From NCBI GenBank assembly GCA_030831085.1, contig JAURLT010000033.1, forward strand, positions 1-50,908: a stretch of 50,908 nt of DNA, given 5' to 3'. The notes beneath the pieces are model-generated. The model had not been told where the DNA came from. It made no database searches and was given only the letters and a program-made list of their open reading frames with translations. Position 1 is the stretch's first letter. Every line of letters begins with the position of its first letter. A program made the position numbers and the translations under genes. The stretch is from Gammaproteobacteria bacterium (GTDB lineage: Bacteria; Pseudomonadota; Gammaproteobacteria; Steroidobacterales; Steroidobacteraceae). Positions 13,758 through 50,908 of the stretch are shown here, piece after piece.

Positions 13758-13760
13758 GCC

Positions 13761-16690: not shown

Positions 16691-16935
16691 AGCGATGGTT
16701 CGAGCGCCTTGAGGGCGAGCGGCTGCCCCGCCGCTTCTGGCTGATCCTGTGGGCGGCGCTGGGCCTGAGCCTGGCGGCCCAGCTGCTGGTGCACCTGCAC
16801 GGATATTTCGGCTTCGATGAGTGGTTCGGTTTCAACGCTGTCTGGGGGTTCCTGACCTGCGTGGTCATGGTGCTTGGGGCGAAGCTGCTGGGGGTTGCGC
16901 TTAAGCGGCCTGAGGATTACTACGACCATGACTGA
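16687..16935 (+). CDS. Small membrane protein (82 aa) embedded between antiporter subunits
   Basis: ATGA overlap upstream, and ATGACTGA overlap with the next gene. There is one clear TM segment (FWLILWAALGLSLAAQLLV) and a second hydrophobic stretch (VWGFLTCVVMVLGAKLLGV). Confidence 0.5.
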   Translation: MKRWFERLEGERLPRRFWLILWAALGLSLAAQLLVHLHGYFGFDEWFGFNAVWGFLTCVVMVLGAKLLGVALKRPEDYYDHD

Positions 16936-18586: not shown

Positions 18587-18669
18587 CGCTTCCGCGGCGA
18601 TAGCTACCGTTGATGGGCGTGGCAGACTTCCGGGTTGCCGTCAAAAACCGGGCATGCTGAGATGCGTGC

Positions 18670-31059: not shown

Positions 31060-31086
31060 TCGTCGCCGGCCGACAGTCCTTAGGCT

Positions 31087-34579: not shown

Positions 34580-34607
34580 GGCTACAATTCTAGCCCACGG
34601 AGGGCAG

Positions 34608-35501
34608 ATGGCGACTGAGGGCATCGACGAACGCTATGCGGGCCTGGACAACTGGCCGGCCGAAAGGTTGGTCAGCGCGTTATTGGAAGCCAAGATCGCG
34701 GCGCTGGATACGGTCCGGTCTCAAGCCGTGCTGGTGGGGAGGGCCATCGAAGCCGCGGCAGCCCGTCTGGAGCGGGAGGGACGCCTGATCTATGCGGGTG
34801 CCGGCACCTCCGGGCGGGTGGCGGTGCAGGACGGGGTCGAATTGCAGCCGACCTTTGGCTGGCCGCGCGAGCGGCTGGCCTATCTGATGGCAGGCGGCAC
34901 GGCGGCGCTGGAGCGCAGCGTCGAGGGTGCGGAGGACGACGCCAGGGCCGGACGTAAGGCGTTGCTGGCGCTCGCGCCCGGGCCGGCCGACGTGGTGCTG
35001 GCCGTGGCGGCCAGCGGGCGCACTCCGTACACGGTAGCGGTGGCCGAGACCGCTCGCGCCGCGGGCGCGCTGGTCATCGGCATTGCCTGCAACCCGGACA
35101 CCCCGCTGCTGGCCGCGGCCGACCATCCCCTGTGTGTGGGAGGTGCTGCAGAGATCGTGGCAGGTTCCACCCGACTGAGTTCAGGCACTGCGCAAAAGGC
35201 GGCGCTGAACGCGATCTCTACCGGCGTGATGGTCCGCCTGGGACGGGTCTACGGCAATCTCATGGTCGGCATGCAGGTGACCAACGACAAGCTGCGGCGG
35301 CGGGCAGTCGCCATGGTGGCGCGGCTGGCCCGCGTCGATGAGCGGCAGGCGGCCACGCAGCTTGGGATAGCCTCTGACGACATTCGGCTGGCCGTTCTCC
35401 TGGCGCTGGGTGTTCCGGGCGATCGTGCGGCGTCGGCGCTGGCTGACGCCGGGGGGCGGTTGGGTGAGGCGGCCCGCTTGCTTGGCCTCGACGCGCCATG
35501 A
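34608..35501 (+). CDS. murQ: N-acetylmuramic acid 6-phosphate etherase (SIS domain)
   Basis: The in-frame ATG at 34608 gives MATEGIDERYAGLDNWPAERLVSAL; the track's 34191 start runs antisense through the kinase. GAGTSGRVAVQDGVEL and TPYTVAVAE fit MurQ. 297 aa. Confidence 0.75.
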   Translation: MATEGIDERYAGLDNWPAERLVSALLEAKIAALDTVRSQAVLVGRAIEAAAARLEREGRLIYAGAGTSGRVAVQDGVELQPTFGWPRERLAYLMAGGTAALERSVEGAEDDARAGRKALLALAPGPADVVLAVAASGRTPYTVAVAETARAAGALVIGIACNPDTPLLAAADHPLCVGGAAEIVAGSTRLSSGTAQKAALNAISTGVMVRLGRVYGNLMVGMQVTNDKLRRRAVAMVARLARVDERQAATQLGIASDDIRLAVLLALGVPGDRAASALADAGGRLGEAARLLGLDAP

Positions 35502-36682
35502 GGATGCAGCTACTGGCAATCGGCACCGGCGTACTCCTGTCGAGTCTTGCACTGGCCGAGACGCCTGTCGCGCCCTTCGGCGAACTCGATGCAACGATCG
35601 AGCAGGCCATCGAGGCGGGGGCCGCGCCCGGCGCCGTGGTGCTGGTGGGGCAGGGAGAGCGGGTCCTGTATCGGCGCGCCTATGGCTGGAGGTCGCTGTC
35701 CGACCCGCGCGAGCCGATGACCGAGGACACGATCTTCGACTTTGCCTCCTTGACCAAGGTGCTGGCCACCGCGACGGCCTTGATGGTCCTGGTCGACGAA
35801 GGCGGGCTCTCGCTGGAAGATCCCGTCTCGAAATGGCTGCCGGATTGGGCAGGCTCCGACAAGGCAGCCCTGACCGTGCGGCAGTTGGCGACCCACGTGG
35901 CAGGGTTTGCACCCGACGTGGACCTCGAGGCCCCATGGGTCGGGCGCGAGACGGCGATGCGGCTGGCGCGTGAGACGCCGCTGGCGGCGCCCCCGGGTGA
36001 GCGCTTCATCTATAGCGACATCGGCTATTTCGTGCTGGCCGCAGTCATCGAGCAGGCGGCTGGCGTACCGTTCGAGACCTTCGTGACGGAACGAGTGCTC
36101 CGCCCATTGGGCATGAACGATACCGCCTTCAGCCCGGCACAGGGCCTGCGTTCGCGCGTTGCGCCCACCGAGCCGGGGGTGGAGCGCGGTGTGGTGCATG
36201 ATCCCACCGCGCGGCGCATGGGCGGGGTGGCTGGTCACGCAGGCCTGTTCTCGACCGCCGAGGACCTCTCGCGCTTTGCACGGATGATCCTGGCCGGGGG
36301 CAGTCTGGAGGGTGTTCGGGTGCTGTCCCCGGAAGCGGTCGGCGTGATGACCTCGACCCAGACACCGTCGGGCATGCAACAACGCCGCGGCATTGGCTGG
36401 GACATCGACACGGCTTTTTCCACCCCGCGAGGCGAGCGTTTTCCCATTGGCTCGATCGGGCATACCGGGTTCACTGGCACCTCGATGTGGCTGGATCCTG
36501 ATAGCGGTGCCTACCTGCTGCTGCTGACCTCGCGATTGCATCCTGATGGCAAGGGCGACGTCCGTTCGTTGCGCAAGCAGGCGGCCACCCTGGTGGCCCG
36601 GGCGGTCCTCGACGAAGGCGCCGGTCAGGCTTCCGGGGGTGGGGGCGGATCGGCTAAGGTGGCGCCCGGGAACACACCATGA
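35498..36682 (+). CDS. Beta-lactamase-family serine hydrolase (third paralogous fold in the window), secreted
   Basis: Signal peptide MRMQLLAIGTGVLLSSLALA. The SxxK motif is FDFASLTKVLAT. ATGA overlaps on both sides (murQ upstream, DUF1611 downstream). Confidence 0.65.
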   Translation: MRMQLLAIGTGVLLSSLALAETPVAPFGELDATIEQAIEAGAAPGAVVLVGQGERVLYRRAYGWRSLSDPREPMTEDTIFDFASLTKVLATATALMVLVDEGGLSLEDPVSKWLPDWAGSDKAALTVRQLATHVAGFAPDVDLEAPWVGRETAMRLARETPLAAPPGERFIYSDIGYFVLAAVIEQAAGVPFETFVTERVLRPLGMNDTAFSPAQGLRSRVAPTEPGVERGVVHDPTARRMGGVAGHAGLFSTAEDLSRFARMILAGGSLEGVRVLSPEAVGVMTSTQTPSGMQQRRGIGWDIDTAFSTPRGERFPIGSIGHTGFTGTSMWLDPDSGAYLLLLTSRLHPDGKGDVRSLRKQAATLVARAVLDEGAGQASGGGGGSAKVAPGNTP

Positions 36683-37680
36683 AAATAGAACAGCCTTACC
36701 TGCTTTTTCTGGGCGATGCCCCCGATATCCTTGCTGCCAAGACCGCCATCGGCGTGTGGTACTGGCGCCCCGAGCATTGCGTGGGTCAGCTGCGCCTGCC
36801 GGGCTGCGTGCCGAGGCTCCCGGCCCCCGAACTCGACATCGCTGCCGCGGTGGCGGCCGGTGCGCGGACGCTGCTGATCGGGGTGGCGAACCGGGGTGGC
36901 AGGATCGGTGAGGCCTGGGTGCCGACCCTGGTGGAGGCCCTCGATCGGGGTCTCGACCTTGCCAGCGGCCTGCACGTACGCCTGTCCAGCGTGCCCGAAG
37001 TGGCCGAGGCGGCGAAGCGCAATGGCCGTCGCCTGATCGAGGTGCGCGAACCGGGCAGGGAGTTCCCGGTAGCCAATGCGAAGCCGCGCAGCGGCCACCG
37101 CCTGTTGGCCGTCGGCACCGACTGTTCGGTCGGCAAGATGTACACCACGCTCGCGCTGGAGCGGGAGATGCGCGCGCGGGGCATGAAGGCGAACTTTCGC
37201 GCCACTGGTCAGACCGGCATCATGATTTCCGGTGAGGGTGTGCCGGTGGACGCGGTGGTCTCCGACTTCATTGCGGGCTCCATCGAGGAGCTGTGCCCGG
37301 CCAACGACGCGGATCACTGGGACCTGGTGGAAGGCCAGGGTTCGCTCTTCCATCCCTCCTTCTCTGGGGTCAGCCTGGGCCTGCTGCATGGTGCGGCGCC
37401 GGACGCCCTTGTCATGTGTCACGAGCCTACGCGCACACACCTGCGCGGATTGCCCCACTGGCCGGTGCCGAACCTCGCCGAGTGTCTCGAGCTTCACCTG
37501 CGCTGCGCGCGCCTGATGAACCCCGAGGTCCGTTTCGTCGGCATGGCCGTGAACACGTCCGCGCTGGCCGAACCCGAAGCGCAGTCGTTGTTGGCCCGCC
37601 TGCAGGAGACGCATGGCCTGCCTTGTGTCGACCCGGTGCGCACGGGCGTGGAGCCCATCGTCGACCTGCTGCAGTCCTGA
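36679..37680 (+). CDS. DUF1611-family protein (commonly paired with L-Ala-D/L-Glu epimerase)
   Basis: MKIEQPYLLFLGDAPDILAAKTAIGVWYWRPE is the DUF1611 N-terminal pattern. 333 aa. A one-nt overlap (TGATG) couples it to the epimerase. Confidence 0.55.
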   Translation: MKIEQPYLLFLGDAPDILAAKTAIGVWYWRPEHCVGQLRLPGCVPRLPAPELDIAAAVAAGARTLLIGVANRGGRIGEAWVPTLVEALDRGLDLASGLHVRLSSVPEVAEAAKRNGRRLIEVREPGREFPVANAKPRSGHRLLAVGTDCSVGKMYTTLALEREMRARGMKANFRATGQTGIMISGEGVPVDAVVSDFIAGSIEELCPANDADHWDLVEGQGSLFHPSFSGVSLGLLHGAAPDALVMCHEPTRTHLRGLPHWPVPNLAECLELHLRCARLMNPEVRFVGMAVNTSALAEPEAQSLLARLQETHGLPCVDPVRTGVEPIVDLLQS

Positions 37681-38699
37681 TGCGCGAGGTGCAGCTGCGC
37701 CGCGAGCGCTGGCCGCTCAGGGAGCCGTTTCGGATCTCGCGTGGCGTGAAGACCGCCGCCGACGTCGTGGTGGTCGAAGTGATCGAACAGGGTGTCACGG
37801 GCCGCGGTGAGGGCGTGCCCTACGCACGCTATGGCGAGTCGGTGGAGGGTGTACTGGCCCAGCTCGAGTCTGCGGCCGGTGCGCTGCGCGAGGGTATGAC
37901 CCGCACCGAACTGCAAGCCTTCATGAAGGCAGGTGCCGCGCGTAACGCGCTCGACTGCGCGCTGTGGGACCTGGAGGCGCAGTTGGCCGGCCAGACGGTC
38001 TGGCAACTCGCCGGCCTGCCAGAGCCGGCTGCTCTGGTGACCGCTCAGACCATTAGCCTGGATACCCCCGAAGCGATGGGGGCGGCCGCAACACGCCATG
38101 CTCATCGACCGCTCCTGAAGCTCAAGCTCGACGCCCACCTGGTGGCCGAGCGCGTGGCCTCGGTGCGTGCCGCGGCGCCGGCCGCACGGCTCATCGTGGA
38201 TGCCAACGAGGGCTGGACGCCCGAGGTGCTGGAGGAGGCGCTGCCGGCGCTGGAGTCGCTGGGCATCGAGTTGCTGGAGCAGCCCTTGAAGGCCGACCAG
38301 GATGGCCCGCTGGACGGCATCGGACATGCCCTGCCCATCGCAGCCGACGAGTCCTGCCACACGCGTGCCGACCTGGAGGCACTCAGTCGGCGCTACGATT
38401 TCGTCAACGTGAAGCTGGACAAGTCTGGCGGGCTGACCGAGGCGCTCGCCATGGTGGGCGAGGCGCGTCGTCTGGGCCTCGGCGTATTCGTAGGGTGCAT
38501 GATCTGCACGTCGCTCTCGATCCGCCCGGCCCTCCTGGTCGCAGCGCAGGCCGACTACGTCGACCTGGACGGCCCGCTATGGCTCACGAACGACCGCGAG
38601 GGCGGAGTTCGCCTCGGCCAGGATGGCAGGCTGGAGCCAGGCGACGCCGCACTGTGGGGCGGGCTCAGCCCGCGTCTGGCGCTCCAAACACCGACTTGA
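37680..38699 (+). CDS. L-Ala-D/L-Glu dipeptide epimerase (enolase superfamily, YcjG/AeeP-like)
   Basis: The in-frame ATG at 37680 gives MREVQLRRERWPLREPFRISRGVKTAADVVVVEV. KLKLD, DANEGW, and the DES...NVKLDKSGGLTEA blocks match MR/MLE-type enolase-superfamily metal and base residues. 339 aa. Confidence 0.7.
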   Translation: MREVQLRRERWPLREPFRISRGVKTAADVVVVEVIEQGVTGRGEGVPYARYGESVEGVLAQLESAAGALREGMTRTELQAFMKAGAARNALDCALWDLEAQLAGQTVWQLAGLPEPAALVTAQTISLDTPEAMGAAATRHAHRPLLKLKLDAHLVAERVASVRAAAPAARLIVDANEGWTPEVLEEALPALESLGIELLEQPLKADQDGPLDGIGHALPIAADESCHTRADLEALSRRYDFVNVKLDKSGGLTEALAMVGEARRLGLGVFVGCMICTSLSIRPALLVAAQADYVDLDGPLWLTNDREGGVRLGQDGRLEPGDAALWGGLSPRLALQTPT

Positions 38700-40180: not shown

Positions 40181-41980
40181 ATGAGCGCGACGGTGTTTCA
40201 GCAGGCGGTGGCGGCGTTCCAGGCTGGCGACATGGCTGCGGCGAAGCGGCAGGTGGACCGGGTGCTGGCCGCCCAGCCGCGCCAGCCGGATGCCCTGCAC
40301 CTCGCGGCGCTGATTAGTCGCCAGTTGGGTCGCCAGCTCGAGGCGCTGACGCAGTTCGAGGCGAGCCTGAAGGCAAGCCCGCACCAGCCGGTCGTACTCT
40401 CGAACCTGGGCAACCTGCTACGTGACCTCGGCCGCCATGATGAGGCGGAGCAGCGTTATGGACGAGCCGTCGAACTGATGCCCCAGTTCGCCGATGCCTG
40501 GTACCAACGCGGGTTGCTCGCCATGGAGCGGCACCGGTCGGGGGATGCCGTTCTGCACCTGACGAAGGCGCGCGAGCTGGATCCACAACCCCGGGTACTC
40601 GCCGCGCTGGCGAGCGTGCAACTGGAGGGAGGCAAGCCCGCCGATGCGCTGCTCACTGCCCGCGACTTCGGGCGTATCGCCCCCATGGATGCCCGTGCCG
40701 TCGCGCTCGAGGCCAGGGCGCTCGCCAGGCTGGGAGACGAGACGGCTGCTCAAGGGCTGTTGCAGTCGGGACTCGGCAAGGTGGACGATCCAGCCAGCCT
40801 GCATCATGAACTCGGCCTGCTGGCCCTGGAGCGGGGTGATGCCCGGGAAGCGATGGACTGTTTCCGGGCGGCCATTCGGGCCAGGCCGGAGTTCATCGAT
40901 GCGCATCGGGCGCTCAATCGCTTGCAGTGGGAGCGTGGCGATGCGACGTTCATGGAGTCCTACCGGCAGGCGCTCGAACAGACGCCTGCCTGCGCGCCCC
41001 TGCATCACAACCTGGCCGCCGCCTGCATCGCCAGCGGCGATGAAGACGGCGCAACAACGGTGCTTGAACGGGCTCTGGACACTGCAGGCTCCGACCCGTT
41101 CCTGCTGCACGGCCTTGCCGTTCAGTATCTGAAGGGCGGCGACCTGGGCCGCGCGCGCGAGGGCTTCGATCGCGCGCTGGCCTCGAGGCCGGACGAGGTG
41201 CGCTTTCTGATCGACAGCGCCAACCTGTGTCTCCGCGAACAGCAACCCGATGCTGCCCAGCAGGCCATCAGCCGGGCACTGGCCGTCTCGCCGCATCACC
41301 AGGAGGCCTGGGCTTACCAGGGGGTGCTCTGGCGGCTCGCTGGCGACGCCCGTCACGACTGGTTGAACGATTACGATGGCCTGCTGCGCGACTACGCGCT
41401 GCCCGTGCCGGCAGGTTTTGCCTCACTGCCCGAGTTCATGCAGGCCTTGGCCTCCGAGCTGGCGGGGCGGCATACCGCGGTGCGCCAGCCACTGGACCAG
41501 AGCGTGCGTCATGGCACCCAGACCACCGGCGTACTGCTGGACGATCCCCATCCGCTGCTGGTGGCCCTGCGCAGCGCCATCGATACCTGCCTGCAGGACT
41601 ACCTGGGCAGGCTGCAGCGGGAGTCCGAACACCCGCTCAGTTCGCGGTTGGGTCGCGGCGCGCGCTTTGCCGGCAGCTGGTCGGTGAGTCTCGGTGGAGA
41701 GGGCTATCACGCCAACCACGTCCATCCGCTAGGCTGGCTGTCCTGCTGTACCTACGTGATGCTGCCGGAGGCGATCGGCGCAGGGGGCGAGGATCGGCGA
41801 GGCTGGATCAAGTTCGGCGAAACCGCGCTTGGTCTCGGTGACCGGGAGCAGGTGGCGCGTGCCATCCAGCCGCGCGTGGGGCACTGCGTGTTCTTCCCGG
41901 CCTATTTCTGGCACGGCACCTTTCCTTTTCAGGAAACCGGCCGCAGGTTGACCGTGCCCTGCGATTTCGAGCCGGGCTGA
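40181..41980 (+). CDS. TPR-repeat protein with a C-terminal 2OG-Fe(II) oxygenase-like domain
   Basis: 599 aa. The first two-thirds is TPR repeats. The C-terminal HANHVHPLGWLSCCTYVMLPE...GHCVFFPAYFWHGTFPF fits an HxD/H...H cupin oxygenase of the PF13759 type. Confidence 0.6.
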   Translation: MSATVFQQAVAAFQAGDMAAAKRQVDRVLAAQPRQPDALHLAALISRQLGRQLEALTQFEASLKASPHQPVVLSNLGNLLRDLGRHDEAEQRYGRAVELMPQFADAWYQRGLLAMERHRSGDAVLHLTKARELDPQPRVLAALASVQLEGGKPADALLTARDFGRIAPMDARAVALEARALARLGDETAAQGLLQSGLGKVDDPASLHHELGLLALERGDAREAMDCFRAAIRARPEFIDAHRALNRLQWERGDATFMESYRQALEQTPACAPLHHNLAAACIASGDEDGATTVLERALDTAGSDPFLLHGLAVQYLKGGDLGRAREGFDRALASRPDEVRFLIDSANLCLREQQPDAAQQAISRALAVSPHHQEAWAYQGVLWRLAGDARHDWLNDYDGLLRDYALPVPAGFASLPEFMQALASELAGRHTAVRQPLDQSVRHGTQTTGVLLDDPHPLLVALRSAIDTCLQDYLGRLQRESEHPLSSRLGRGARFAGSWSVSLGGEGYHANHVHPLGWLSCCTYVMLPEAIGAGGEDRRGWIKFGETALGLGDREQVARAIQPRVGHCVFFPAYFWHGTFPFQETGRRLTVPCDFEPG

Positions 41981-41985
41981 GTGCC

Positions 41986-43503
41986 TCAGGCCCGAGGGCC
42001 TGACTCTTCGAAGGTGGCGTCGAAGGTGCTCTGGAAGCGTTCCCAGCGCCCGATCGAGCCAGCGTAAAGAGGTTGCCTGACCTGCCAGACACTCGCTGTG
42101 CGGACGGTATTCGACAGCGTATGAAACTCCAGGCAGGCGTCATCCCAGGGCTCGCCCAGAAACTCCAGCAGGCGTCCGATCTGTGCTTTCGGTTCGGCGA
42201 CCACCTGCTCATAGTCGACGACCAGCAGGTCTTTGCCGAGCAGCGCCTGCCAGTGGGCGATCAAGCGGTCATGCTGCGCGATGAAATGCCGGATGTGCGC
42301 GAGGTCGGTGGCATAGGGCGCCATCGGGCCGAGTCGGGTGGCGAAGATCGAGGTGGCGACGTCGCGCCAGTCGCGGCGGGTGACCACGACCCGTGCGGCG
42401 GGAAACAGCGCCTTGATGAGGCCCAGATACAGGAAGTTGTCCGGTCGCTTGTCGGTGATGCGGGTGTCCTTGCCGAAGATGGCCTCGGTCTCGCGCTGGT
42501 AGCTGCGGGCCCAGGACTTCAGGCGGCCCGCGTCGACGCTCGCGATCTCGCGCGGATAGCCCGGCAATTGCGCGGCGACCAGCCGGGGGAAGAACTCGCG
42601 CTCCCCTCCTGGGGTGAACGCCGGATGCGCGGCCAGCGCCTGCTCGAGGAGCGTGGAGCCGGAACGCAGCATGCCGCAGATGAACACCGGCGAGGTCGCC
42701 TGACCAGTGGAGAGGCGGGCCAGCCACTCGGGCGTGCAAGTGGCGATCAGCGTGTCGATTCCCGATTCCACCCGCCCGGGTGAATACGCGGGCATCACGC
42801 TTCGATCAAGGCGGTTGGCCTCGGCATAAGCTTGCCATGCGGCCTCATACTGGCCACGTTGCTCGCGCGCCCGCCCGACCGCGAAATGCAGGTCCGGATC
42901 GCGGGAGCCCCCTGCAGCGGCCTCAAGGCGCTGGAGCACCGGCTCACCGTCCACGTTGAAGTCGAAGGTGTCGGCCAGTCGGGCGAGGGAGGGCGTGGCC
43001 GCCGGATCGATTTCGAGACACCGCCCGAACAGTTCGCGGGCACGCTCCAGTTGCCCCTCCTGTTCGGCGAGGCCGCCGAGATTGTGCACGGCCGGCAGGT
43101 AGGCGGGATTCAGGCGGAGGGCTTGCTCGAGGTGCTGCTTCGCGCGACGGTCGTCGCGCAGCACCGAGGAGTACAGGTTGGCCAGGTTGGTATGTGCTTC
43201 CTCGGCCCGCGGGATGCCAAGCTCGATGGCTTTCTCGTAGTGGCGCACCGCCACCATGGGCTGGCCCTGGCGGGCGCTGAACCAGGCGAAGTTGAAATGC
43301 CCCAGCGAGGAGCGCGGGTGGGTGCGCAGGTACTGTTCCCAGGCCGCGGCCGCGGCATCCAGCCTGCCGCTGCGCAGGCACAGCTGGCCCAGCTGGTTCA
43401 ACAGGGGCAGCGGTTCCGGAGACTGGCGGATGGCACGCCGCAACTCGCCGATGGCCGCTTCGAGGTTCGCTCCAGTGGGGGGCTTTCCTGCTGCGTCGTT
43501 CAT
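41986..43503 (-). CDS. TPR-repeat sulfotransferase-family protein
   Basis: 505 aa. The N-terminal half is TPR. VFICGMLRSGSTLLEQAL is the 5'-PSB PAPS-binding loop. RDWRDVATS and the HY/R context follow. Confidence 0.65.
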   Translation of the reverse strand: MNDAAGKPPTGANLEAAIGELRRAIRQSPEPLPLLNQLGQLCLRSGRLDAAAAAWEQYLRTHPRSSLGHFNFAWFSARQGQPMVAVRHYEKAIELGIPRAEEAHTNLANLYSSVLRDDRRAKQHLEQALRLNPAYLPAVHNLGGLAEQEGQLERARELFGRCLEIDPAATPSLARLADTFDFNVDGEPVLQRLEAAAGGSRDPDLHFAVGRAREQRGQYEAAWQAYAEANRLDRSVMPAYSPGRVESGIDTLIATCTPEWLARLSTGQATSPVFICGMLRSGSTLLEQALAAHPAFTPGGEREFFPRLVAAQLPGYPREIASVDAGRLKSWARSYQRETEAIFGKDTRITDKRPDNFLYLGLIKALFPAARVVVTRRDWRDVATSIFATRLGPMAPYATDLAHIRHFIAQHDRLIAHWQALLGKDLLVVDYEQVVAEPKAQIGRLLEFLGEPWDDACLEFHTLSNTVRTASVWQVRQPLYAGSIGRWERFQSTFDATFEESGPRA

Positions 43504-43538
43504 GGTGCAAGGATACCGTCCGAGGGTTTTTCAGGCAC

Positions 43539-43567
43539 AAAAAAAGAGGCGGGCCGAAGCCCGCCTC
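43539..43567 (-). terminator. Rho-independent terminator downstream of the TonB-receptor gene
   Basis: On the minus strand: GAGGCGGGC-ttcg-GCCCGCCTC followed by TTTTTTT (plus strand aaaaaaaGAGGCGGGCcgaaGCCCGCCTC). Confidence 0.55.
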
Positions 43568-43594
43568 CAGGTGTCACGAGAGGACGCCTTGCGC

Positions 43595-46393
43595 TTAGAA
43601 GCGCAGGGTGGCCTTCATGAACAGGTAACGACCCAGCGTGTCGTAGAAGCCAGCGACGGTGTTCGCGTTGCTGGTCAGGGTGGCGCCCAACAGCGGCGGC
43701 TCCTCGTCCAGAACGTTATTGACACCCATCACGATGTCGGAGTTTTCCATGAACCGGAACGTGGCGTTCAGGTCCAGGTAAATTTCCGTATCCAGATTAT
43801 CCGCTGCGATTCTATCGGTGGTTCCCACGTACTTGGTCTTGTCCATGTAACGGATACGCGCGCCCACAGCCCACCACTCGTTGGAGTCGTAGGATGTATT
43901 CAACACGAACCGGTACTCAGGTGTGGGGAAACACCCAGAGCTGATGATGCCGACGCAGTCATTCTTCGTGGCGTTGTCGGTAGGAATGGGCTGGGATTCC
44001 TTGGTCAGCATGTAGGTGCCGATCAGGTTCACCGAAATGCTGCCACCGAGTGCATCCGTGCGGTAAGCAGCTGCAATGTCGATGCCCTCGTAGGTGGCTT
44101 CACCGAAGTTCTGCAGCGTGTTTTCCACGTACCCCGCCTGACCCAGCCACAGGCTGCCGCCCTGCGGCGAACGCGTAATGGCTCCGCAGAGATTGCCGTA
44201 CAACCCGCACTGCTCCAGGATCAGCGCCGGACCGAGGGTGCTGATCGTATCCTCCAGCGCGATGCTCCAGTAGTCCACTGAGAGCGTCAGGTTATCCATC
44301 GGGGTCACCACCACGCCGAAGGTGACCGTATCCGCCTTTTCAGGCTTCAGTCCGAGGTTGCCGCCAGACAACTGGTTGTACTGGCCCGCTGGGCTGAACG
44401 AGATGCTCCCGTACTGGGCAGCCGTTACACCGGTGTTGGCGCACTGAGCCTGGGTGTACAACGGCGTCGCGCCAGCGCAGGGGTCAACGCCCTGCCAAAG
44501 TCCAAGCTGGTTGGCCGTGTACAGCTCGCTGATGTTCGGGGCGCGAACCGCACGGTTGTAGCCGCCGCGTACCCGCAGCATGTCCAGCGGGCTCCAATCC
44601 AGCCCGACACGATAGGTGTCGGTGCCCCCGGCAGTGCTGTAGTCGGAGAACCGGTACGCCGCATCCAGTGTGAGGTTATCGAGAACCGGCACACTGAACT
44701 CGGTGAAATACTCCATGACGGTAAAGCCGCCCCTCAGGCTCACGAACGGCCCGCCCTGGCCTGCCAGCTCGCCGTCGGTGTATAGCTTGTCGGTTACGCG
44801 GTCGTAAGTATCCTGACGGTGCTCAAAGCCAAACACCGCCTGGATGTTGTCTGCTCCCGGCAGGCCGAACCCGAGATCACCGCTGACGTAGCCGCCGAGC
44901 ACCTCGGTCGAGGTGTCGCCGGTGGCAATCGCAGTGCCGCCCAAGGCCGAGGCCTGGGTCGAGGTGACACCACCGAAGGTGAACACCTGATAGCAGCCCC
45001 CCGGAGTACTGGCACAGTCGACGCCGATCGCGTTCCTGATTGCCGAGAACAGCAGGTCATTCTGGTAAGCAGAACTGGAGGCCGTCTTGCCGAGCTGATA
45101 GAACAGGTCATAGCTCCAGTTCTCGGTCAGCTGGCCACGGCTGCCGCCCACCAGGCGGAAGCTATCGTAGTCGGTATTCTCCGCTCGCGGACCGCCTTCC
45201 TTGTTCCGCTTGCCAACGTACACCAGCCAGGCAGCCGCGTTAGGATTAATGGCCGCCAGAGACGCCTGGAAGGCGGCCGGGAACAGGAAATAATCACCCG
45301 GAAGAACATAGCCTTCGCCAAAGAAGGTCCCTGATTCCGCAATCTGCGCGCGAGACGCAGAGCTGGTGAAATTCACCTCCATGTACGGGGTGAAGTGTTC
45401 ATTGACCTCGAAATCAACAAACGCACCGAGGGAGTACTTCTCGTCAGGCCGCATGAAATAGTTGATCGGCGCAAAGTTGTAACGATTTGAGCCGTCGAAC
45501 GGCGCCAACGAGCTGTCGGGCTGCAGCGTGAAGAAAGAAGTGTCGTAGTCCAGATAGCTTCCGTCCGGCCCGAGCGGGTACAGGAAGTAGTTGGGGTTTG
45601 GGGCCGTGCCCGAACCACCGCAACTTAACCCAGAGTCGCCCAGGGCACAGGAGGAATAGTCGCGGGAACCCTCAAGGAGGGCGTCGCCCTTACGCCAGGT
45701 GGCGTAGGCGGTCGCGTTACCCCGACCGTCAGCGAAATCCGACCCGATCAGGACGTCGAGGTTGTAAGACCGACCATCAATGTCCGTGCTCCCTGTGGGA
45801 TAGTCGAAGCCGCGGGCGTCCATGCGGCCCTGGATGTACGTGTTGTCGTTCTTGTGCTGATAGCCGCCAGCACCAAGGCTGACTTCCACGCCGTTGACGC
45901 GCCGGGTGATGAAGTTCACCACGCCGGCGACCGCGTCGGCGCCGTAGGTAGCAGATGCACCGCCCGTGAGTACCTCAATCCGCTCGACAATGGCCGCCGG
46001 GATCTGGTTGATGTCGGGGATCTGTGTGTTCACGCCGCCCGGTTGCAGGCGCTTGCCGTTGAACAGCACCAGGGTGCGGCTCGCACCCAGCCCGCGTAAG
46101 TCGAGCGAGGCGGTGCCGGTGGCGCCGTTGGAGATGAACGAGTTCTGGGCGGCTTCGATGGAGGGCAGGCTGTTCAGCACGTCCTCCAGACGGGTCATAC
46201 CGGTGAGCTTGATGTCCTCGGAGGTGACCACCGACACCGGGGCCACCTGACCGAAACCGTCAGCGGCCGCGATACGCGAACCGGTGACCATGACTTCTTC
46301 GAGTTCCTGCGCCGCGACGGTAGACGACAGGCCTGCTGCAGCAAGGCCGAGGGTCGTCGAGACCGCGAGGGCAAGAGGTGTGTTCTTACGCAT
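43595..46393 (-). CDS. TonB-dependent outer-membrane receptor (large, Oar-like)
   Basis: 932 aa. Signal peptide, then a plug domain (EEVMVTGSRIAAADGFGQVAPVSVVTSEDI). The C-terminus ends ...FMKATLRF with a terminal aromatic residue. Confidence 0.8.
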   Translation of the reverse strand: MRKNTPLALAVSTTLGLAAAGLSSTVAAQELEEVMVTGSRIAAADGFGQVAPVSVVTSEDIKLTGMTRLEDVLNSLPSIEAAQNSFISNGATGTASLDLRGLGASRTLVLFNGKRLQPGGVNTQIPDINQIPAAIVERIEVLTGGASATYGADAVAGVVNFITRRVNGVEVSLGAGGYQHKNDNTYIQGRMDARGFDYPTGSTDIDGRSYNLDVLIGSDFADGRGNATAYATWRKGDALLEGSRDYSSCALGDSGLSCGGSGTAPNPNYFLYPLGPDGSYLDYDTSFFTLQPDSSLAPFDGSNRYNFAPINYFMRPDEKYSLGAFVDFEVNEHFTPYMEVNFTSSASRAQIAESGTFFGEGYVLPGDYFLFPAAFQASLAAINPNAAAWLVYVGKRNKEGGPRAENTDYDSFRLVGGSRGQLTENWSYDLFYQLGKTASSSAYQNDLLFSAIRNAIGVDCASTPGGCYQVFTFGGVTSTQASALGGTAIATGDTSTEVLGGYVSGDLGFGLPGADNIQAVFGFEHRQDTYDRVTDKLYTDGELAGQGGPFVSLRGGFTVMEYFTEFSVPVLDNLTLDAAYRFSDYSTAGGTDTYRVGLDWSPLDMLRVRGGYNRAVRAPNISELYTANQLGLWQGVDPCAGATPLYTQAQCANTGVTAAQYGSISFSPAGQYNQLSGGNLGLKPEKADTVTFGVVVTPMDNLTLSVDYWSIALEDTISTLGPALILEQCGLYGNLCGAITRSPQGGSLWLGQAGYVENTLQNFGEATYEGIDIAAAYRTDALGGSISVNLIGTYMLTKESQPIPTDNATKNDCVGIISSGCFPTPEYRFVLNTSYDSNEWWAVGARIRYMDKTKYVGTTDRIAADNLDTEIYLDLNATFRFMENSDIVMGVNNVLDEEPPLLGATLTSNANTVAGFYDTLGRYLFMKATLRF

Positions 46394-46617
46394 AGGTCAT
46401 ACCTCTTCCATTTGTGAACTAACAACGAATTCGGTGCAGCGTTCCGCTTGACCCCTCGCCGCACCGGACCAATTTGGATCCAAAGGCCAAACTGCACGAG
46501 ACGTTAGTCGAATTCCTTCGGCTAATCAATACATTGTGGCCAAAATACAACAGTCGGAAGGGGCTTTTGTGACTCGTATCATCGCGCCCGGGGCCGGGAA
46601 ACGTTATGTCGAAAACC

Positions 46618-47118
46618 CTAGCGGACGAACTCCACGCCTACGGACCGGCCCGTGGCGTTCACGGTGAGCACGTGGAAGCCGAAAAAGTTGCGGCGAATCG
46701 TCACTTCCAGGTCGTCACCGGTGTATCTGTAACGGCCGGGCTGGCGCTGCTTCCAGACCTGGCCGTTTTCCAATCGAAACAAGGTGTTACCGTCCCAGCC
46801 CTCAAAGGGGCGCTGCACGCGGCTCACGATGCGGGTGTCTTCGGCTGCCTCTCTGACTTCCTCGTTAGTGCGCTGCAGCATCTCCGCCTCGCCTGCGGTG
46901 TACCGCAACAGCCAGGCATCGAGCGCCGCAAGTTCCTGGGGGGATAGCTTGTTCAGTCCGGCCGAGTCGAACTCGGCCGGACTCATGAGCCTGCCGACTC
47001 CCGGAAATTTTTTCTGATTCAGAGAGTTATCAGCCTGAGCGGCCAATGCCGCAAGGCCCTGAAGGAGGGCCACCGTCAGGCAAAGGAGGGTGATTCGATA
47101 CAGTGTCAAGCAAAGCAA
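46618..47118 (-). CDS. Secreted hypothetical protein
   Basis: Signal peptide MLCLTLYRITLLCLTVALLQGLAALAAQA. TTG start. 166 aa. No recognisable domain. Confidence 0.4.
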   Translation of the reverse strand: MLCLTLYRITLLCLTVALLQGLAALAAQADNSLNQKKFPGVGRLMSPAEFDSAGLNKLSPQELAALDAWLLRYTAGEAEMLQRTNEEVREAAEDTRIVSRVQRPFEGWDGNTLFRLENGQVWKQRQPGRYRYTGDDLEVTIRRNFFGFHVLTVNATGRSVGVEFVR

Positions 47119-47125
47119 CCGCGGT

Positions 47126-47404
47126 TCAGCCCCCGGTATTGCCCTGAATACCGTTGGTCATCCGCTCACTCGCCTGCCCCTTCTCGGTCGCTTCCTGGGC
47201 AATTTTCCGTGCCTCGTCCCACTGAGCCTGGGTCAAGCAGGTCTTCTTGGCGATCCGTGTGCCGGTTGGCGCTACGGACTTGCAAACCCGACGCTCGTTC
47301 TTTGTGGGTTCTGCGGCTGTCGTAGCGGGCCCATCGGCCTGTGCCAGCGCGGCGAAGAGCGAAAGACTGCCCAACAGGCAGGCGGCGGCTGAAAATTTGC
47401 GCAT
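47126..47404 (-). CDS. Small secreted Cys-pair protein with a Gly tail (paralog 1)
   Basis: Signal peptide MRKFSAAACLLGSLSLFAALAQA. Core RRVCKSVAPTGTRIAKKTCLTQAQWDEARKIAQEATEKGQ. It ends ...NTGG. Confidence 0.6.
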   Translation of the reverse strand: MRKFSAAACLLGSLSLFAALAQADGPATTAAEPTKNERRVCKSVAPTGTRIAKKTCLTQAQWDEARKIAQEATEKGQASERMTNGIQGNTGG

Positions 47405-47529
47405 GAGCGTCCCCTATTGAGCCCTTGGCCCCGCAGTCGTCCCAAACCGTAGGTTACCATCCCGGCCGATGGTAATTAAGCGAATGCCGTCAAAAGGGGC
47501 TAAAAAACGGTCCCGCCCCGGGCTTGACG

Positions 47530-47829
47530 CTAGCCGCCACCCCCACCGCCGCCTCCGGACATGTTGATCATCAGCGCGCTAACCTGCCCCCTCTCGGTCG
47601 CTTCCTGGGCAATCTTTCTCGCCTCGTCCCACTGGGCGACCGTCAGGCAGGTTCGTTTGGCAATTCGTGAGCCGGTTGGAGCGACGGTCTTGCAAATCCT
47701 CCGCTGATTGGCGGTGGGGTTCTTCACGCCTTTAGGGACGATTTCCACGCTGTCGTCGGCGTGAGCGCCGCCAGTCAACAACACTGCACCAACGGCCAGG
47801 GCGACAAGTCTAAATTTGGTTGGTCCCAT
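47530..47829 (-). CDS. Small secreted Cys-pair protein with a poly-Gly tail (paralog 2)
   Basis: The ATG at 47829 gives MGPTKFRLVALAVGAVLLTGGAHA; the track's 48057 start adds an implausible leader. Core RRICKTVAPTGSRIAKRTCLTVAQWDEARKIAQEATERGQ. It ends GGGGGGGG. Confidence 0.6.
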   Translation of the reverse strand: MGPTKFRLVALAVGAVLLTGGAHADDSVEIVPKGVKNPTANQRRICKTVAPTGSRIAKRTCLTVAQWDEARKIAQEATERGQVSALMINMSGGGGGGGG

Positions 47830-47868
47830 GCTGGTACGGCTCACGGCCAAACGGGTTAACCTACGGCG

Positions 47869-49890
47869 ATGCAAGGTAAGGTACCACGGCCAGGACACCC
47901 CGAGTGGTTGAGGGACGGAATCCGTCGCGCTGAGGCTCTGATGTCGACCGATCCCGCAGCTGCGGCGGCGGAGGCAGAGGCGGTGCTGCAGAGGCAGCCC
48001 GGATACCCGGTTGCCATGCTGCTCGTGGGGGTGGCCAACCGCCTGCTTGGGAAGCATGACAAAAGCCTCGGGGTCCTGGGGAACCTCGCGCGTGCGCAGC
48101 CCAATTCGGGGGTTGCCCAGTTTGAATTTGCCCTGAGCCTTGCAGCCGCTGGCCAGGACGAGGCCGCGATGCAGGGCCTGAAGCGCGCGGTCGAAGCCAA
48201 TCCCCAGCTCGCTGCCGCGTGGCTAGAGTTGGCGAGTCGCCTCCACGCGATGGGTCAAGCATTGGACGCGAGAAATGCCTACGACAATTATGTGACTGCA
48301 TCGTCGAGGGATCCCGATCTTTCCAGCGGATCCGACGGAAACGAGGGATACGAGCAGCGGCTCTGGAATCGCGTCACGGCCCGGCCAGATGACCTCGCCG
48401 CCTTGAAAATCCTTGCCGACCTAGAATTTTCCCTGGGCAGGAATGCGGATGCCCGAAACCTGTATGCGCGTTGCCTGCTTCTGGCGCCGGGCTTCATGAC
48501 AGCAGCCTATGGGCTGGCACAATCCCTGCTGCGGATTGGAGATTACCCGGCAGCTCAGGCGCAGGCGGAACGCCTGCTTGAACTGGAGCCTGATAGTCCG
48601 TCGTATCTAATGCTGCGCGGCGCGATCCACGTGCGAACCGGCAACACGGATGCGGCGTTGCCGGTCTACCAGCGCGCGGTTGAAGTTAACGGCGGTGCCG
48701 GTAGGCCGCTTCTGTCCTACGGCAACGCTTTGCGTGCCGCAGGCAAGACGGAAGAGGCCATCGACGCCTACCGGCGCTGCATTGTTGACCAACCCGCCTC
48801 GGGGGAGGCCTGGTGGGGGCTCGCGAACCTCAAGACATACCGCTTTACCTCGGAGGAAACGTCGCAGATGGAGTCACTGCTGGAAACGGCGGGACTTTCG
48901 GATCATGACCGCCTGCATCTCGCGTTTTCCGTCGCTAAGTCCCTCGAGGATGCGGGCGAGTATGAACGCGCCTTCTCCCGGTATTCGCTCGGCAATGCCT
49001 TGCGCAGGGCAGCCATCGGACACGATTCCGGAGAGACGACCTCACTAGTTGAGGCCTCGCGCAGGCTTTTCACCGCAGAGTATGTGGACGCGGCGGCCGG
49101 GTTGGGCTGCGAGCGGTCCGATCCGATCTTCATCGTGGGCATGCCGCGGGCTGGCTCGACGCTGCTCGAGCAGATTCTTGCCAGCCATTCCCAGGTGGAA
49201 GGCACCATGGAGTTACCCAACGTGATGGGGATCGCTCGCGACCTCGGAACCGAAGGCGAAGGACGCTGGCCGGGCAGTTTGTGTGGGGTAATGCGCAGTC
49301 TGGACGGGCGACGCTGGAAAGAACTGGGCGAACGGTATCTTGCCGAAACGATGGTGCAGCGCAAGACGTCTGCGCCACACTTCGTCGATAAGCAGCCCAG
49401 CAATTTTCTTCACGCCGGGCTTATCCTGTTGATGTTGCCGCGCGCCCGGATCATCGATGCTCGCCGTCACCCCATGTCCTGCTGCTTTTCGAACTTCAAG
49501 CAGCATTTCGCGCATGGCCAGAAATTTGCCTATGACCTTGGCGACCTCGCCCGGTATTACAGCGATTACGTGGAACTGATGGCCCACTTCGACCAGGTGT
49601 TCCCGGGGCGCATCCTGCGTGTGCACTACGAGGACATGGTGAGCGATACGGAAGCGCAGGTGCGGCGTCTGCTCGATTACTGCCGGCTGCCCTTCGAGGA
49701 GTCCTGCCTGCGTTTCTACGAGAATCCGCGTTCGGTCCGCACGGTCAGTTCCGAACAGGTCCGCCGGCCGATCTACCGGGAGGGCGTCGACCAGTGGCGG
49801 CACTTTGAGCCCTGGCTGGGGCCACTGAAGGAGGGCCTGGGGGAGGTGCTGGAGCGCTACCCCGCCGTGCCGGAATTCCCGGAGGTCTGA
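47869..49890 (+). CDS. TPR-repeat sulfotransferase-family protein (second paralog)
   Basis: 673 aa; an alternative ATG at 47941 is possible. TPR repeats come first, then IFIVGMPRAGSTLLEQILASH (5'-PSB loop) and the same C-terminal architecture as 41986-43503. Confidence 0.65.
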   Translation: MQGKVPRPGHPEWLRDGIRRAEALMSTDPAAAAAEAEAVLQRQPGYPVAMLLVGVANRLLGKHDKSLGVLGNLARAQPNSGVAQFEFALSLAAAGQDEAAMQGLKRAVEANPQLAAAWLELASRLHAMGQALDARNAYDNYVTASSRDPDLSSGSDGNEGYEQRLWNRVTARPDDLAALKILADLEFSLGRNADARNLYARCLLLAPGFMTAAYGLAQSLLRIGDYPAAQAQAERLLELEPDSPSYLMLRGAIHVRTGNTDAALPVYQRAVEVNGGAGRPLLSYGNALRAAGKTEEAIDAYRRCIVDQPASGEAWWGLANLKTYRFTSEETSQMESLLETAGLSDHDRLHLAFSVAKSLEDAGEYERAFSRYSLGNALRRAAIGHDSGETTSLVEASRRLFTAEYVDAAAGLGCERSDPIFIVGMPRAGSTLLEQILASHSQVEGTMELPNVMGIARDLGTEGEGRWPGSLCGVMRSLDGRRWKELGERYLAETMVQRKTSAPHFVDKQPSNFLHAGLILLMLPRARIIDARRHPMSCCFSNFKQHFAHGQKFAYDLGDLARYYSDYVELMAHFDQVFPGRILRVHYEDMVSDTEAQVRRLLDYCRLPFEESCLRFYENPRSVRTVSSEQVRRPIYREGVDQWRHFEPWLGPLKEGLGEVLERYPAVPEFPEV

Positions 49891-49905
49891 ATCCGAGCCT
49901 GAGTC

Positions 49906-50908
49906 CTAGCCAAACCTGAGCGCTGGATCGGCCACAGGTTTTAGCCGGGTATCAAGCCAGTCCCGCAGGTAGTTCTGGTGCACTCGCCACGGAAAACGAT
50001 CGCCCTGGCTGGGCAGTTCTTTAAGCGCGCGCTGGATGTAACCCGGATTGAAGTCGACGAAGGGGCGCTCTTCCACCGAGGGATCGCGCTCCGGGCGCAC
50101 CGACGTAAGGCCCTCGCGGTCGAGATGACGGATCAGGCGCCGGACCAGTAAGGCGACCAGTTCAGCCCGCAGGGTCCAGGAGGCGTTGATGTAGCCGAAG
50201 GTGTAAGCCAGGTTTGGCACTCCGCTCAGCATGGCGCCGCGATAGACCATGGTGTCGGCGAGTTGTACGGGCCGTCCGTCCTCGGTCAGGCGCATCCCGC
50301 CGAGCGGACGGATGACCAGGCCCGTGGCGGTGACCACCACATCGGCTGCGAGCAGGCGGCCGGAGCGGGTCAGGATCCCTTCGGGCAGGAACCGCTCGAT
50401 GTGGTCGGTGACCATTTCGACCGTGCCCGCCGAGATGGCGGCAAACAGGTCGCCGTCAGGCACGGCACAGACGCGCTGGTCCCAGGGGTCGTAGCTCGCC
50501 CGAAAATGTTCCTCGACGGGATAGCCTGCGGGCAGCGCAGCACGGGCCATCCTGAGGATCTGCCGCTTGATGAAATCAGGACGCCAGCGAGCCAGCGCAT
50601 ACTGCAACTGGGCCTCGAGGATCTTCTTCCACCTGACCAACTGCCAGGCCACTCGGCCGGGCAGCCAGGGAAACAGCAGACGACCCACCGGGTCCCGGGC
50701 CGGCTGGCTAGCCACCCAGGAGGGGGAGCGCTGCAGCAGGGTGACGTGTGCCGCCTCGCGGGCGAGGGCTGGCACCAGTGTCACCGCCGTGGCGCCGCTG
50801 CCGATGACCACGATGCGCCTGCCACGGAGATCGAGATCCTCCGGCCAGTGCTGCGGATGGACGATGCGTCCGAAAAAGCGTTCCTCACCCTCGAAGCGGG
50901 GCCGGTAG
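49906..50908 (-). CDS. Flavin-containing/Baeyer-Villiger-type monooxygenase; 3' part only, the start lies beyond the window end
   Basis: The reverse frame from 50907 reads YRPRFEGEERFFGRIVHPQHWPEDLDLRGRRIVVIGSGATAVT (FMO FxGxxxHxxxW motif plus a second GxGxxA dinucleotide fold) and continues to the stop at 49906. Confidence 0.65.
   Translation of the reverse strand, partial: YRPRFEGEERFFGRIVHPQHWPEDLDLRGRRIVVIGSGATAVTLVPALAREAAHVTLLQRSPSWVASQPARDPVGRLLFPWLPGRVAWQLVRWKKILEAQLQYALARWRPDFIKRQILRMARAALPAGYPVEEHFRASYDPWDQRVCAVPDGDLFAAISAGTVEMVTDHIERFLPEGILTRSGRLLAADVVVTATGLVIRPLGGMRLTEDGRPVQLADTMVYRGAMLSGVPNLAYTFGYINASWTLRAELVALLVRRLIRHLDREGLTSVRPERDPSVEERPFVDFNPGYIQRALKELPSQGDRFPWRVHQNYLRDWLDTRLKPVADPALRFG

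Follow-up and report, generated by a model that had tools for sequence, protein, structure and literature searches.

TPR-fused sulfotransferases and hydroxylases linked to small exported Cys-hairpin proteins and TonB-dependent receptors in proteobacteria

To our knowledge, protein sulfation and side-chain hydroxylation are hallmarks of the proteins that eukaryotes secrete, but bacteria offer almost no examples, the classic sulfated exception being RaxX. A contig of 50,908 nucleotides from a gammaproteobacterium of the family Steroidobacteraceae (GenBank assembly GCA_030831085.1, contig JAURLT010000033.1; hereafter the window) raises the question of what such enzymes might do in a bacterium. 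Near its end, one 2-oxoglutarate (2OG)-dependent oxygenase and two 3′-phosphoadenosine 5′-phosphosulfate (PAPS) sulfotransferases, all three fused to tetratricopeptide repeats (TPR), bracket a TonB-dependent receptor, a secreted protein of 166 residues and two small exported proteins with a single pair of cysteines. Are these genes neighbors by chance, and if not, which molecule do the enzymes modify? Here we show that the small proteins belong to a widespread family linked to these enzymes and receptors, and tentatively propose that the enzymes hydroxylate and sulfate exported envelope proteins.

The small exported proteins and their gene cluster

The initial annotation had listed the genes of this cluster from the sequence alone. 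Scans of the open reading frames (ORFs) against Pfam and NCBIfam models recovered all of them, bar minor corrections of start codons (Table 1). Small gene 2, which is divergent from the second sulfotransferase gene, starts at MGPTKF and replaces a longer listed ORF of 175 residues, and the 673-residue sulfotransferase might alternatively start at Met25, as in a close relative (L001). The shared TPR and PAPS-loop architecture of the two sulfotransferases and the oxygenase C-terminus of the third enzyme were confirmed by Pfam, the receptor gene does have a strong terminator-like hairpin of its own, and the gene cut by the window edge is indeed similar to flavin-containing monooxygenases (FMO).

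Each of the two small proteins has a signal peptide with an A-x-A site and one Cys pair, and translation of both genes bore out the earlier remark that neither contains Tyr. The signal peptide of protein 1 ends in ...ALAQA, leaving a mature chain of ~69 residues that begins with DG, and the sequence AGGGGA lies upstream of its ATG; that of protein 2 ends in ...GGAHA before DD, and its tail consists of eight Gly. Sequence identity between these two paralogs is 55% over their whole length and 72% within the core. Between the two genes no terminator was found, the best fold being no better than that of shuffled sequence (z = 0.2).

A word-indexed search with the small proteins found 10 relatives only, named as proteins of Steroidobacteraceae metagenome-assembled genomes (MAGs). 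Searching 1.84 billion representatives with a profile of the conserved core revealed at least 589 clusters at 50% identity (E <= 1e-3). We define the family by a signal peptide or lipobox followed by the C-terminal core [VI]-C-K-x4-T-G-[ST]-R-[ILF]-x-K-[KR]-x-C-x-T-x2-[QE]-W. Nearly all members have 75-130 residues with the conserved domain at the C-terminus, and some carry a lipobox in place of the type I signal peptide. The logo of 258 members reads [DN]-[RK]-x-[VI]-C-K-x4-T(88%)-G(100%)-[ST](99%)-R(94%)-[FIL]-x-K-[KR]-x-C-x-T(89%)-x2-[QE]-W(100%)-[DE], and both window proteins have every position of the core motif. Cys41 and Cys56 of protein 1 are invariant in the alignment; the loop that they bound has no conserved Asp or Asn, and a position rich in Asp, Asn or Glu lies 4-6 residues before the first Cys. 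In scans of the window proteins, no Pfam or NCBIfam model matched the family. One apparent member, P0159 (1060 residues, eight matched stretches), was discarded as a TPR-repeat false positive of the helical part of the profile.

Structure prediction of the core by AlphaFold2 from an alignment of 72 sequences (mean predicted local distance difference test, pLDDT, 78) yielded a β-hairpin, with strands at residues 7-12 and 21-26, followed by a long helix. The model predicts that the two Cys residues sit on opposite strands and clamp the hairpin, the predicted tip of which is formed by T-G-[ST]-R-[ILF], the most conserved element of the family. A Foldseek search of the Protein Data Bank (PDB) with this model found no match (best E 1.9), and neither did a tblastn search of the PLSDB plasmids with the core. 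The small genes occur in one to five tandem copies per locus. Up to five stand beside one receptor in Pseudoteredinibacter isoporae LMG 25246 (L077, 434-2718), and some genomes have at least three separate loci (L027, L073 and L095 in one MAG), so that the family is multi-copy per genome.

The 166-residue protein, whose family we term P166, likewise matched no Pfam or NCBIfam model. A search found 106 homologs, mostly of 155-170 residues, which share the motif F.GW.G.T.F.L.NGQVW.QR in the β domain and a semi-conserved aromatic residue (Tyr or Phe) followed by acidic residues. AlphaFold2 predicted a helical part and a small β domain (pLDDT 83), for which Foldseek found no match in the PDB (best E 0.08). 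Its ORF starts with TTG, and the public gene calls for its close relatives (L001-L008) begin at an internal Met, giving 122 residues and losing the signal peptide. As most homologs have 155-170 residues and cover the signal-peptide region, the alignments favor the long secreted form that had been annotated, and the public calls are probably truncated.

The third partner, the receptor, has Plug and barrel domains (Pfam E 2.6e-22 and 1.5e-31) and an N-terminus in which ...TVAAQ is followed by ELEEVMVTGSRI. No substrate-specific NCBIfam equivalog reaches its cutoff on this receptor, and no solved homolog was found beyond plug-level similarity to BtuB.

Table 1. Positions of the cluster genes, of motifs within them and of further genes of the window
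Feature	Position	Strand	Evidence or remark
TPR-fused putative 2OG/Fe(II) oxygenase, 599 aa	40181..41980	+	TPR families and PF13759 at residues 499-594
TPR-fused TPST-like PAPS sulfotransferase, 505 aa	41986..43503	-	Sulfotransfer_3 E 7e-36
Terminator-like hairpin 3′ of the receptor gene	43545..43568	-	10-pair stem, 8 G-C, then TTTTTTT
TonB-dependent receptor, 932 aa, 'VVTGSRI' class	43595..46393	-	Plug and barrel domains
TGSRI pentapeptide directly after the receptor TonB box (ELEEVMVTGSRIAAAD)	46271..46285	-	Translation checked
Secreted 166-aa protein (P166 family)	46618..47118	-	Signal peptide, helical region, small β domain
Small exported Cys-hairpin protein 1, 92 aa	47126..47404	-	Family profile E 1.5e-37
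TGTRI loop motif of small protein 1	47252..47266	-	Translation checked
Small exported Cys-hairpin protein 2, 99 aa, poly-Gly tail	47530..47829	-	Family profile E 9.5e-36
TGSRI loop motif of small protein 2	47662..47676	-	Translation checked
Second TPR-fused sulfotransferase, 673 aa (649 aa from Met25)	47869..49890	+	Sulfotransfer_3 E 1.9e-49
FMO/Baeyer-Villiger-type monooxygenase gene, cut by the window end	49906..50908	-	FMO-like
TonB-dependent receptor of the upstream cluster	28675-31059		
SSF symporter	31087-32562		
Amidohydrolase	32541-33710		
SIS-domain protein	34191-35501		
394-aa protein reading like a serine β-lactamase/DD-peptidase-type hydrolase	35498-36682		S-x-x-K motif (ASLTK)
DUF1611 protein	36679-37680		
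Possible enolase-superfamily epimerase	to 38699		By reading only

Linkage of the small proteins to enzymes and receptors across genomes

Conservation of the arrangement in related genomes had been set as a check on the initial annotation, and the outcome was positive and broader than expected. In the close Steroidobacteraceae relatives (L001-L008) the cluster is retained in full, contains one or two copies of the small gene and has the second sulfotransferase at its conserved position, and the 505-residue sulfotransferase keeps its place beside the receptor in L001-L003, L009, L010 and L011. Two distant small proteins chosen solely for their long contigs, P0139 (44% identity) and P0200 of Pseudoxanthomonas (35%), both lie in the same type of cluster, and the latter locus adds a TPR-AspH-like hydroxylase and several TPR-sulfotransferases. 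In contexts anchored on the oxygenase, the receptor is adjacent in all four loci and a TPR-sulfotransferase lies between oxygenase and receptor in three; L009 contains a clear small-protein member and L011 a divergent lipoprotein member. Each of the six distant loci (L009-L014) has a P166 member, and in gammaproteobacteria the 166-residue protein is at least as constant as the small protein beside the receptor and enzymes.

A wider scan took a single genome from each species, searched it with a degenerate DNA pattern built by hand from the core motif, and returned at least 119 loci as uncentered blocks of up to 8 kb. Hidden Markov models (HMMs) recognized a true family match in 109 of the listed loci, and 10 pattern false positives, including loci of Nitrospira, Streptococcus, Streptosporangiaceae, Dysosmobacter and Onishia, provided a crude control. 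The true matches come from Sphingomonadales, Caulobacterales, Parvularculaceae, Xanthomonadales/Lysobacterales, Woeseiaceae and Cellvibrionales, the last represented by Microbulbifer, Halieaceae and Pseudoteredinibacter. Partners were counted with HMMs built from the domains of the window. Among the 109 listed loci, a sulfotransferase shares the block in 39, an AspH-like hydroxylase in 31, the PF13759 oxygenase in eight, a receptor plug in 33 (30%) and a P166 member in 16; at least one enzyme is present in 52 (48%) and any partner gene or P166 in 63, compared to a partner in none of the 10 control loci. Where 3 kb are visible on both sides, 12 of the 19 listed loci have a sulfotransferase and 16 some partner. 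The sulfotransferase lies less than 400 bp from the small gene in 21 of the 39 listed loci that have one, mostly on the same strand, and sphingomonads show an operon in the order receptor, TPR-sulfotransferase, one to three small genes and AspH-like hydroxylase (e.g. L050, L059 and L087). An independent Pfam census of 114 neighboring ORFs at 29 centered loci counted TPR 18 times, Sulfotransfer_3 and Asp_Arg_Hydrox 13 times each, the receptor seven times, Sulfotransfer_2 six times, and methyltransferase and 2OG-FeII_Oxy_3 five times each.

On the strength of the block counts, the subset with 3-kb flanks and the Pfam census, the linkage of the small family to the enzymes and the receptor class is real and spans two proteobacterial classes, and the arrangement is far beyond chance. 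Genes for such receptors abound in these taxa, so some adjacency to them would be expected if the genes were chance neighbors or hitch-hikers in receptor-rich genomes with no functional link. However, such an explanation is effectively excluded, because the rare sulfotransferase and hydroxylase genes occur in almost half of the listed small-protein blocks and in none of the controls, because gene order is kept over both classes, and because the linked receptors form related subfamilies. Receptors adjoining small genes elsewhere score 160-1870 bits against the window receptor (300-1870 bits in gammaproteobacteria and ~170-200 bits in sphingomonads), whereas the second receptor of the window fails E 1e-5 against it.

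The accessory enzymes vary among equivalent clusters. SapC is found in L011 (9198-9968), JmjC_2 with 2OG-FeII_Oxy_3 in L010 (17948-19716), and a methyltransferase with an AspH-like hydroxylase in L013 (16035-18156). This variation points to a toolkit of tailoring enzymes that is reshuffled around an unvarying core of receptor and 166-residue protein. In addition, a trio of genes for an extracytoplasmic function (ECF) sigma factor, a single-pass anti-sigma-like protein (174-184 residues) and a DUF4097 protein adjoins the receptor in L010 (19724-21746) and L014 (15516-17512); the trio, which is not in the window, may regulate the system.

Enzymes, candidate substrates and competing explanations

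Sulfotransfer_3 (PF13469) scores 124.9 bits on the 505-residue enzyme and 169.3 bits on the 673-residue enzyme, against a cutoff of 27. Their PAPS loops, GMLRSGST and GMPRAGST respectively, align with GMPRSGTT of the protein-tyrosine sulfotransferases (TPST). The only significant solved relatives of the 505-residue enzyme are TPST1 and TPST2 (E 1.5e-14 to 3.5e-10), besides which the sulfotransferase domain has one marginal match to a polyketide synthase (E 0.008). GGERE of the 505-residue enzyme aligns with CGEET of TPST in the region of the catalytic-base Glu, and the 673-residue enzyme has EGTME there, as placed by alignment to the 505-residue enzyme rather than to TPST. The two sulfotransferases are paralogs as first annotated, but old ones, since they are only 30% identical over 364 residues.

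The oxygenase matches PF13759 (2OG-FeII_Oxy_5) with E 9e-18 and 65.0 bits against a cutoff of 27, and stays below the cutoff of the narrower subfamily TIGR02466 (29.9 versus 62.5 bits). From the association of TIGR02466 with cyanophages, we take PF13759 to be the 'Syn9-gp52-like' family of Iyer and colleagues. Full-length orthologs of ~600 residues occur in Xanthomonadales, Marinihelvus, Porticoccaceae and Woeseiaceae. Alignment of 29 orthologs revealed six invariant residues (H510, H513, H515, H578, R589 and D595), a pattern that fits an active metal center of the H-x-H...H...R type rather than the classical H-x-D. The TPR region of the oxygenase scores best against those of O-GlcNAc transferase (OGT) and SPINDLY, in which the TPR superhelix grips unfolded protein substrates. 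None of the three TPR enzymes has a signal peptide, nor do the AspH-like neighbors of small genes elsewhere, and PAPS is a cytoplasmic cofactor. The missing signal peptides, the TPST-like domain and the OGT-like TPR thus indicate that the enzymes are cytoplasmic and of a protein-directed type.

Based on these features, we tentatively favor a reading in which TPR-guided enzymes hydroxylate and sulfate exported envelope proteins in the cytoplasm before Sec export, the products working together with the receptor and the 166-residue protein. Each of the three enzymes, one PF13759 oxygenase and two TPST-like sulfotransferases, would use its N-terminal TPR superhelix to capture unfolded precursors. 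Adjacency, shared orientation and tandem multiplication make the small Cys-hairpin proteins the most likely substrate; the 166-residue protein or the receptor N-terminus would be alternatives. The captured precursor would be hydroxylated and O-sulfated ahead of export, the acceptor being a Ser or Thr (the invariant loop [ST], T6 or T17) or a hydroxyl newly put in place, or else residing in another protein. After export and cleavage of the signal peptide, a disulfide between the paired cysteines would clamp the hairpin and display the T-G-[ST]-R-[ILF] loop, and the modified proteins would act in the periplasm or outer membrane with a receptor of the 'VVTGSRI' class and the 166-residue protein. 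Gene content, domain identities, the signal peptides, which are found on the small proteins and not on the enzymes, the linkage and the hairpin as a predicted fold are what the analysis established; that modification takes place, on which residue, and what cargo the receptor carries we infer.

In its broad sense, the earlier reading as a post-translational modification system agrees with the linkage and with the protein-directed domains (TPST1/2-like catalytic part, OGT/SPINDLY-like TPR). Its wording as a peptide signal fits poorly, as the small proteins have Sec-type signal peptides, and some are lipoproteins, rather than the leader peptides of peptides that are synthesized ribosomally and modified post-translationally (RiPPs). 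A RiPP reading was rejected on the same ordinary Sec or lipoprotein signal peptides and on the lack of any encoded RiPP peptidase or transporter; no ATP-binding cassette (ABC) peptidase-transporter was found in any cluster examined.

Several points weigh against the modification of the small proteins. The main weakness is the pairing of a TPST-like sulfotransferase, assigned by sequence, with small proteins that lack Tyr: no conserved Tyr column exists among the 258 family members, so that a conserved TPST-type acceptor in the family was rejected, and the bacterial sulfated peptides that we met in the literature, RaxX and the sulfonated lanthipeptides, carry the sulfate on Tyr. Receptor and enzymes stand in the oxygenase-anchored L010 and L012 with no small protein within 10 kb, and ~40% of the listed small-protein loci have no partner in the visible block, many of them lying near a block edge. 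Modification of a Sec substrate in the cytoplasm would be unusual, HMW1C and TibC offering precedents. Finally, the substrate could be the 166-residue protein or the receptor instead, because L010 and L012 lack a small protein and P166 is present in all six distant loci.

This last possibility can be put as a full alternative, in which the TPR enzymes modify the receptor or the 166-residue protein, and the small proteins are unmodified accessories or regulators, perhaps mimics of the TonB box that bind the C-terminal domain of TonB or the receptor. The constancy of P166 is consistent with it, as is the receptor, adjacent in all four oxygenase-anchored loci, compared to two with a small protein; the lipoproteins of the family, hence envelope-retained, would suit it as well. 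It also draws on a pentapeptide shared by the hairpin loop and the receptor. TGSRI of small protein 2 is identical to the pentapeptide of the window receptor (VMVTGSRI), and small protein 1 has TGTRI. Among the linked receptors with a complete N-terminus, 38 of 44 have TG[ST]R[ILFVM] directly after the TonB box, and the motif occurs in 126 of 161 small ORFs, compared to 0.0125 per 1000 residues in the other six-frame ORFs of the same loci. The unlinked window receptor has EITVTATKRD instead. However, many loci have a sulfotransferase and a small gene adjacent and co-oriented, several of them with no adjoining receptor (in a sample chosen for the presence of the small gene); genes multiplied in tandem more typically encode substrates than accessories; and binding of TonB or the receptor by the small proteins is putative. 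We regard modification of the receptor or the 166-residue protein, with the small proteins as accessories, as the chief rival to the favored reading, though less likely than it.

Either a common partner (the C-terminal domain of TonB or the TPR enzymes) or convergence may account for the shared motif. As 'VVTGSRI' appears to be widespread among receptors in these taxa, the motif may characterize a class of receptor and not the cluster alone. A more daring proposal, to which we give little credence, is that the Ser or Thr of the motif is O-sulfated by the TPR enzymes, or hydroxylated first and sulfated next, in the hairpins and possibly in the TonB-box flank of the receptor, or else that the hairpin is a TonB-box mimic, and that either would tune the engagement of 'VVTGSRI' receptors by TonB.

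In a further alternative, a small-molecule metabolite, such as a siderophore-like compound, is what the enzymes tailor and the receptor takes up, and the small proteins are unrelated neighbors. Iyer, Abhiman, de Souza and Aravind (2010; PMC2938197) describe neighborhoods of Syn9-gp52-like 2OG dioxygenases, TonB-like receptors and sulfotransferases, and proposed such a product for related ones; SapC stands beside the oxygenase in L011, and JmjC_2 with 2OG-FeII_Oxy_3 beside the receptor in L010. However, the conserved clusters examined encode neither a non-ribosomal peptide synthetase (NRPS), a polyketide synthase (PKS) or a ligase nor a conserved importer or exporter of the inner membrane, and this absence of backbone-forming and transport genes argues against a small-molecule pathway. 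Moreover, all tailoring enzymes of the window have long TPR arrays resembling that of the protein-modifying OGT, the sulfotransferase is TPST-like, and the small family is statistically tied to the enzymes. Altogether, a metabolite as the modified species appears improbable.

Surroundings of the cluster and relation to known systems

Upstream of the cluster, at 28675-38699, lies a second, unrelated receptor cluster (Table 1), which looks like a locus for scavenging peptides or muropeptides. G+C content is 0.54-0.70 across the window. It is 0.60-0.63 at 43000-50000, where receptor, small genes and second sulfotransferase lie, compared to 0.68-0.70 in the preceding 10 kb, which takes in the oxygenase and the first sulfotransferase; such a drop might mark an island gained by horizontal transfer. 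A strong excess of T over A (AT skew -0.26 to -0.32) at 8000-19000 and 31000-33000 coincides with membrane-protein genes, namely three Proton_antipo_M (Mrp/Nuo-type) subunits at 13761-18586 and the SSF symporter; a penicillin-amidase gene (18670-20754) follows the former. In the close relatives L001-L005, a P450 gene precedes the monooxygenase and a CsgG-like gene comes after it, whereas the window has no CsgG-like gene between monooxygenase and sulfotransferase.

The cluster resembles the eukaryotic TPST and AspH systems in several respects. TPST1/2 are the closest sequences to its sulfotransferase domain, and AspH of the human type, a TPR-bearing enzyme with substrates of the epidermal growth factor (EGF) type, has TPR fused to an oxygenase, as in the cluster; the AspH-like neighbors of the small genes belong to the AspH family PF05118. 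The eukaryotic systems act on disulfide-bonded, EGF-like hairpins, and the candidate substrate here is a small, secreted, predicted disulfide-clamped hairpin. There are also clear differences. The eukaryotic systems are secretory, whereas the cluster enzymes appear cytoplasmic and would act before export and disulfide formation; the AspH consensus C-x-[DN]-x4-[FY]-x-C is not in the small proteins, and no conserved Tyr is offered to a TPST. In addition, the window oxygenase belongs to PF13759, not PF05118, and no PF05118 gene is present in the window. The comparison with AspH is therefore one of analogy, not membership.

Among bacterial systems, a related prediction is that of Iyer et al. 2010 (PMC2938197). 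The relevant passages describe neighborhoods in which a TonB-like receptor is associated with SapC, tryptophan halogenase, JmjC or Syn9-gp52-like dioxygenases and sulfotransferases, for which a siderophore-like metabolite is proposed as product. They further describe operons of β-hydroxylase and sulfotransferase with secreted Gly-rich or collagen-like proteins, and predict hydroxylation, then sulfation, of the co-encoded proteins. The associations of enzymes and receptor in those passages are the same as here, and SapC and JmjC occur in some of our related loci. By contrast, the window has no halogenase, NRPS or SapC, with SapC found only in L011 and no halogenase seen in L001-L014. The candidates named in those passages are Gly-rich or collagen-like and tail-collar proteins, with no mention there of the Cys-hairpin family, the 166-residue family or the TonB-box motif. 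A 2005 survey lists the architecture TPR~Sulfotransfer_1. In the full-text literature, we found no description of the Cys-hairpin family, the 166-residue family, their linkage, the shared motif or the cluster. Overall, the cluster is a variant of a predicted, experimentally untouched kind of system, widespread but undescribed.

RaxX/RaxST of Xanthomonas oryzae likewise combines a bacterial sulfotransferase with a small secreted polypeptide encoded next to it. RaxX is reported to be Tyr-sulfated and made with a leader peptide, and to be processed and exported by the peptidase-transporter RaxB. The small proteins, by comparison, lack Tyr and have signal peptides of the Sec or lipoprotein kind, and no exporter of the RaxA/B type accompanies them. 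The cluster sulfotransferases also differ from RaxST in being fused to TPR arrays, which RaxST is not known to have.

OGT/SPINDLY and FlmG, a bacterial flagellin glycosyltransferase, have a TPR array followed by a catalytic domain, as the cluster enzymes do, and HMW1C and TibC share with our proposal the idea of modification ahead of export. All of these enzymes glycosylate, whereas we propose sulfation and hydroxylation. Finally, TonB-box-bearing proteins that enter through TonB-dependent receptors (the group B colicins and the pyocins) and receptor-containing lasso-peptide clusters recall the present one, in which a small secreted protein is encoded beside a receptor and has a short motif in common with the flank of its TonB box. 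Compared to colicins and pyocins, the cluster shares a pentapeptide only, located just after the TonB box and not inside it, and it has no toxin or immunity gene and no outer-membrane secretion route; some members of the family are lipoproteins.

The cluster offers a defined, widespread and compact system for asking whether bacteria sulfate or hydroxylate their own envelope proteins, with culturable carriers such as Sphingopyxis sp. J-6 (NZ_CP145810, 3,984-3,992 kb), Luteimonas wenzhouensis YD-1, Parahaliea aestuarii S2-26, Pseudoteredinibacter isoporae LMG 25246 and several Microbulbifer species. It could explain the neighborhood noted in 2010, in which TonB-dependent receptors stand beside hydroxylases and sulfotransferases, and it defines two protein families that match no Pfam or NCBIfam model and no solved structure. 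Should the motif Ser or Thr prove to be the acceptor, bacteria would have their first case of protein O-sulfation on a residue other than tyrosine, and TonB-dependent transport in sphingomonads, caulobacters, xanthomonads and Cellvibrionales would be subject to a new layer of control. Receptor-rich lineages owe their ecological success largely to very large receptor repertoires, and modification or mimicry at the TonB-box flank, if true, would be relevant to nutrient uptake in soil, plant-surface and marine bacteria.

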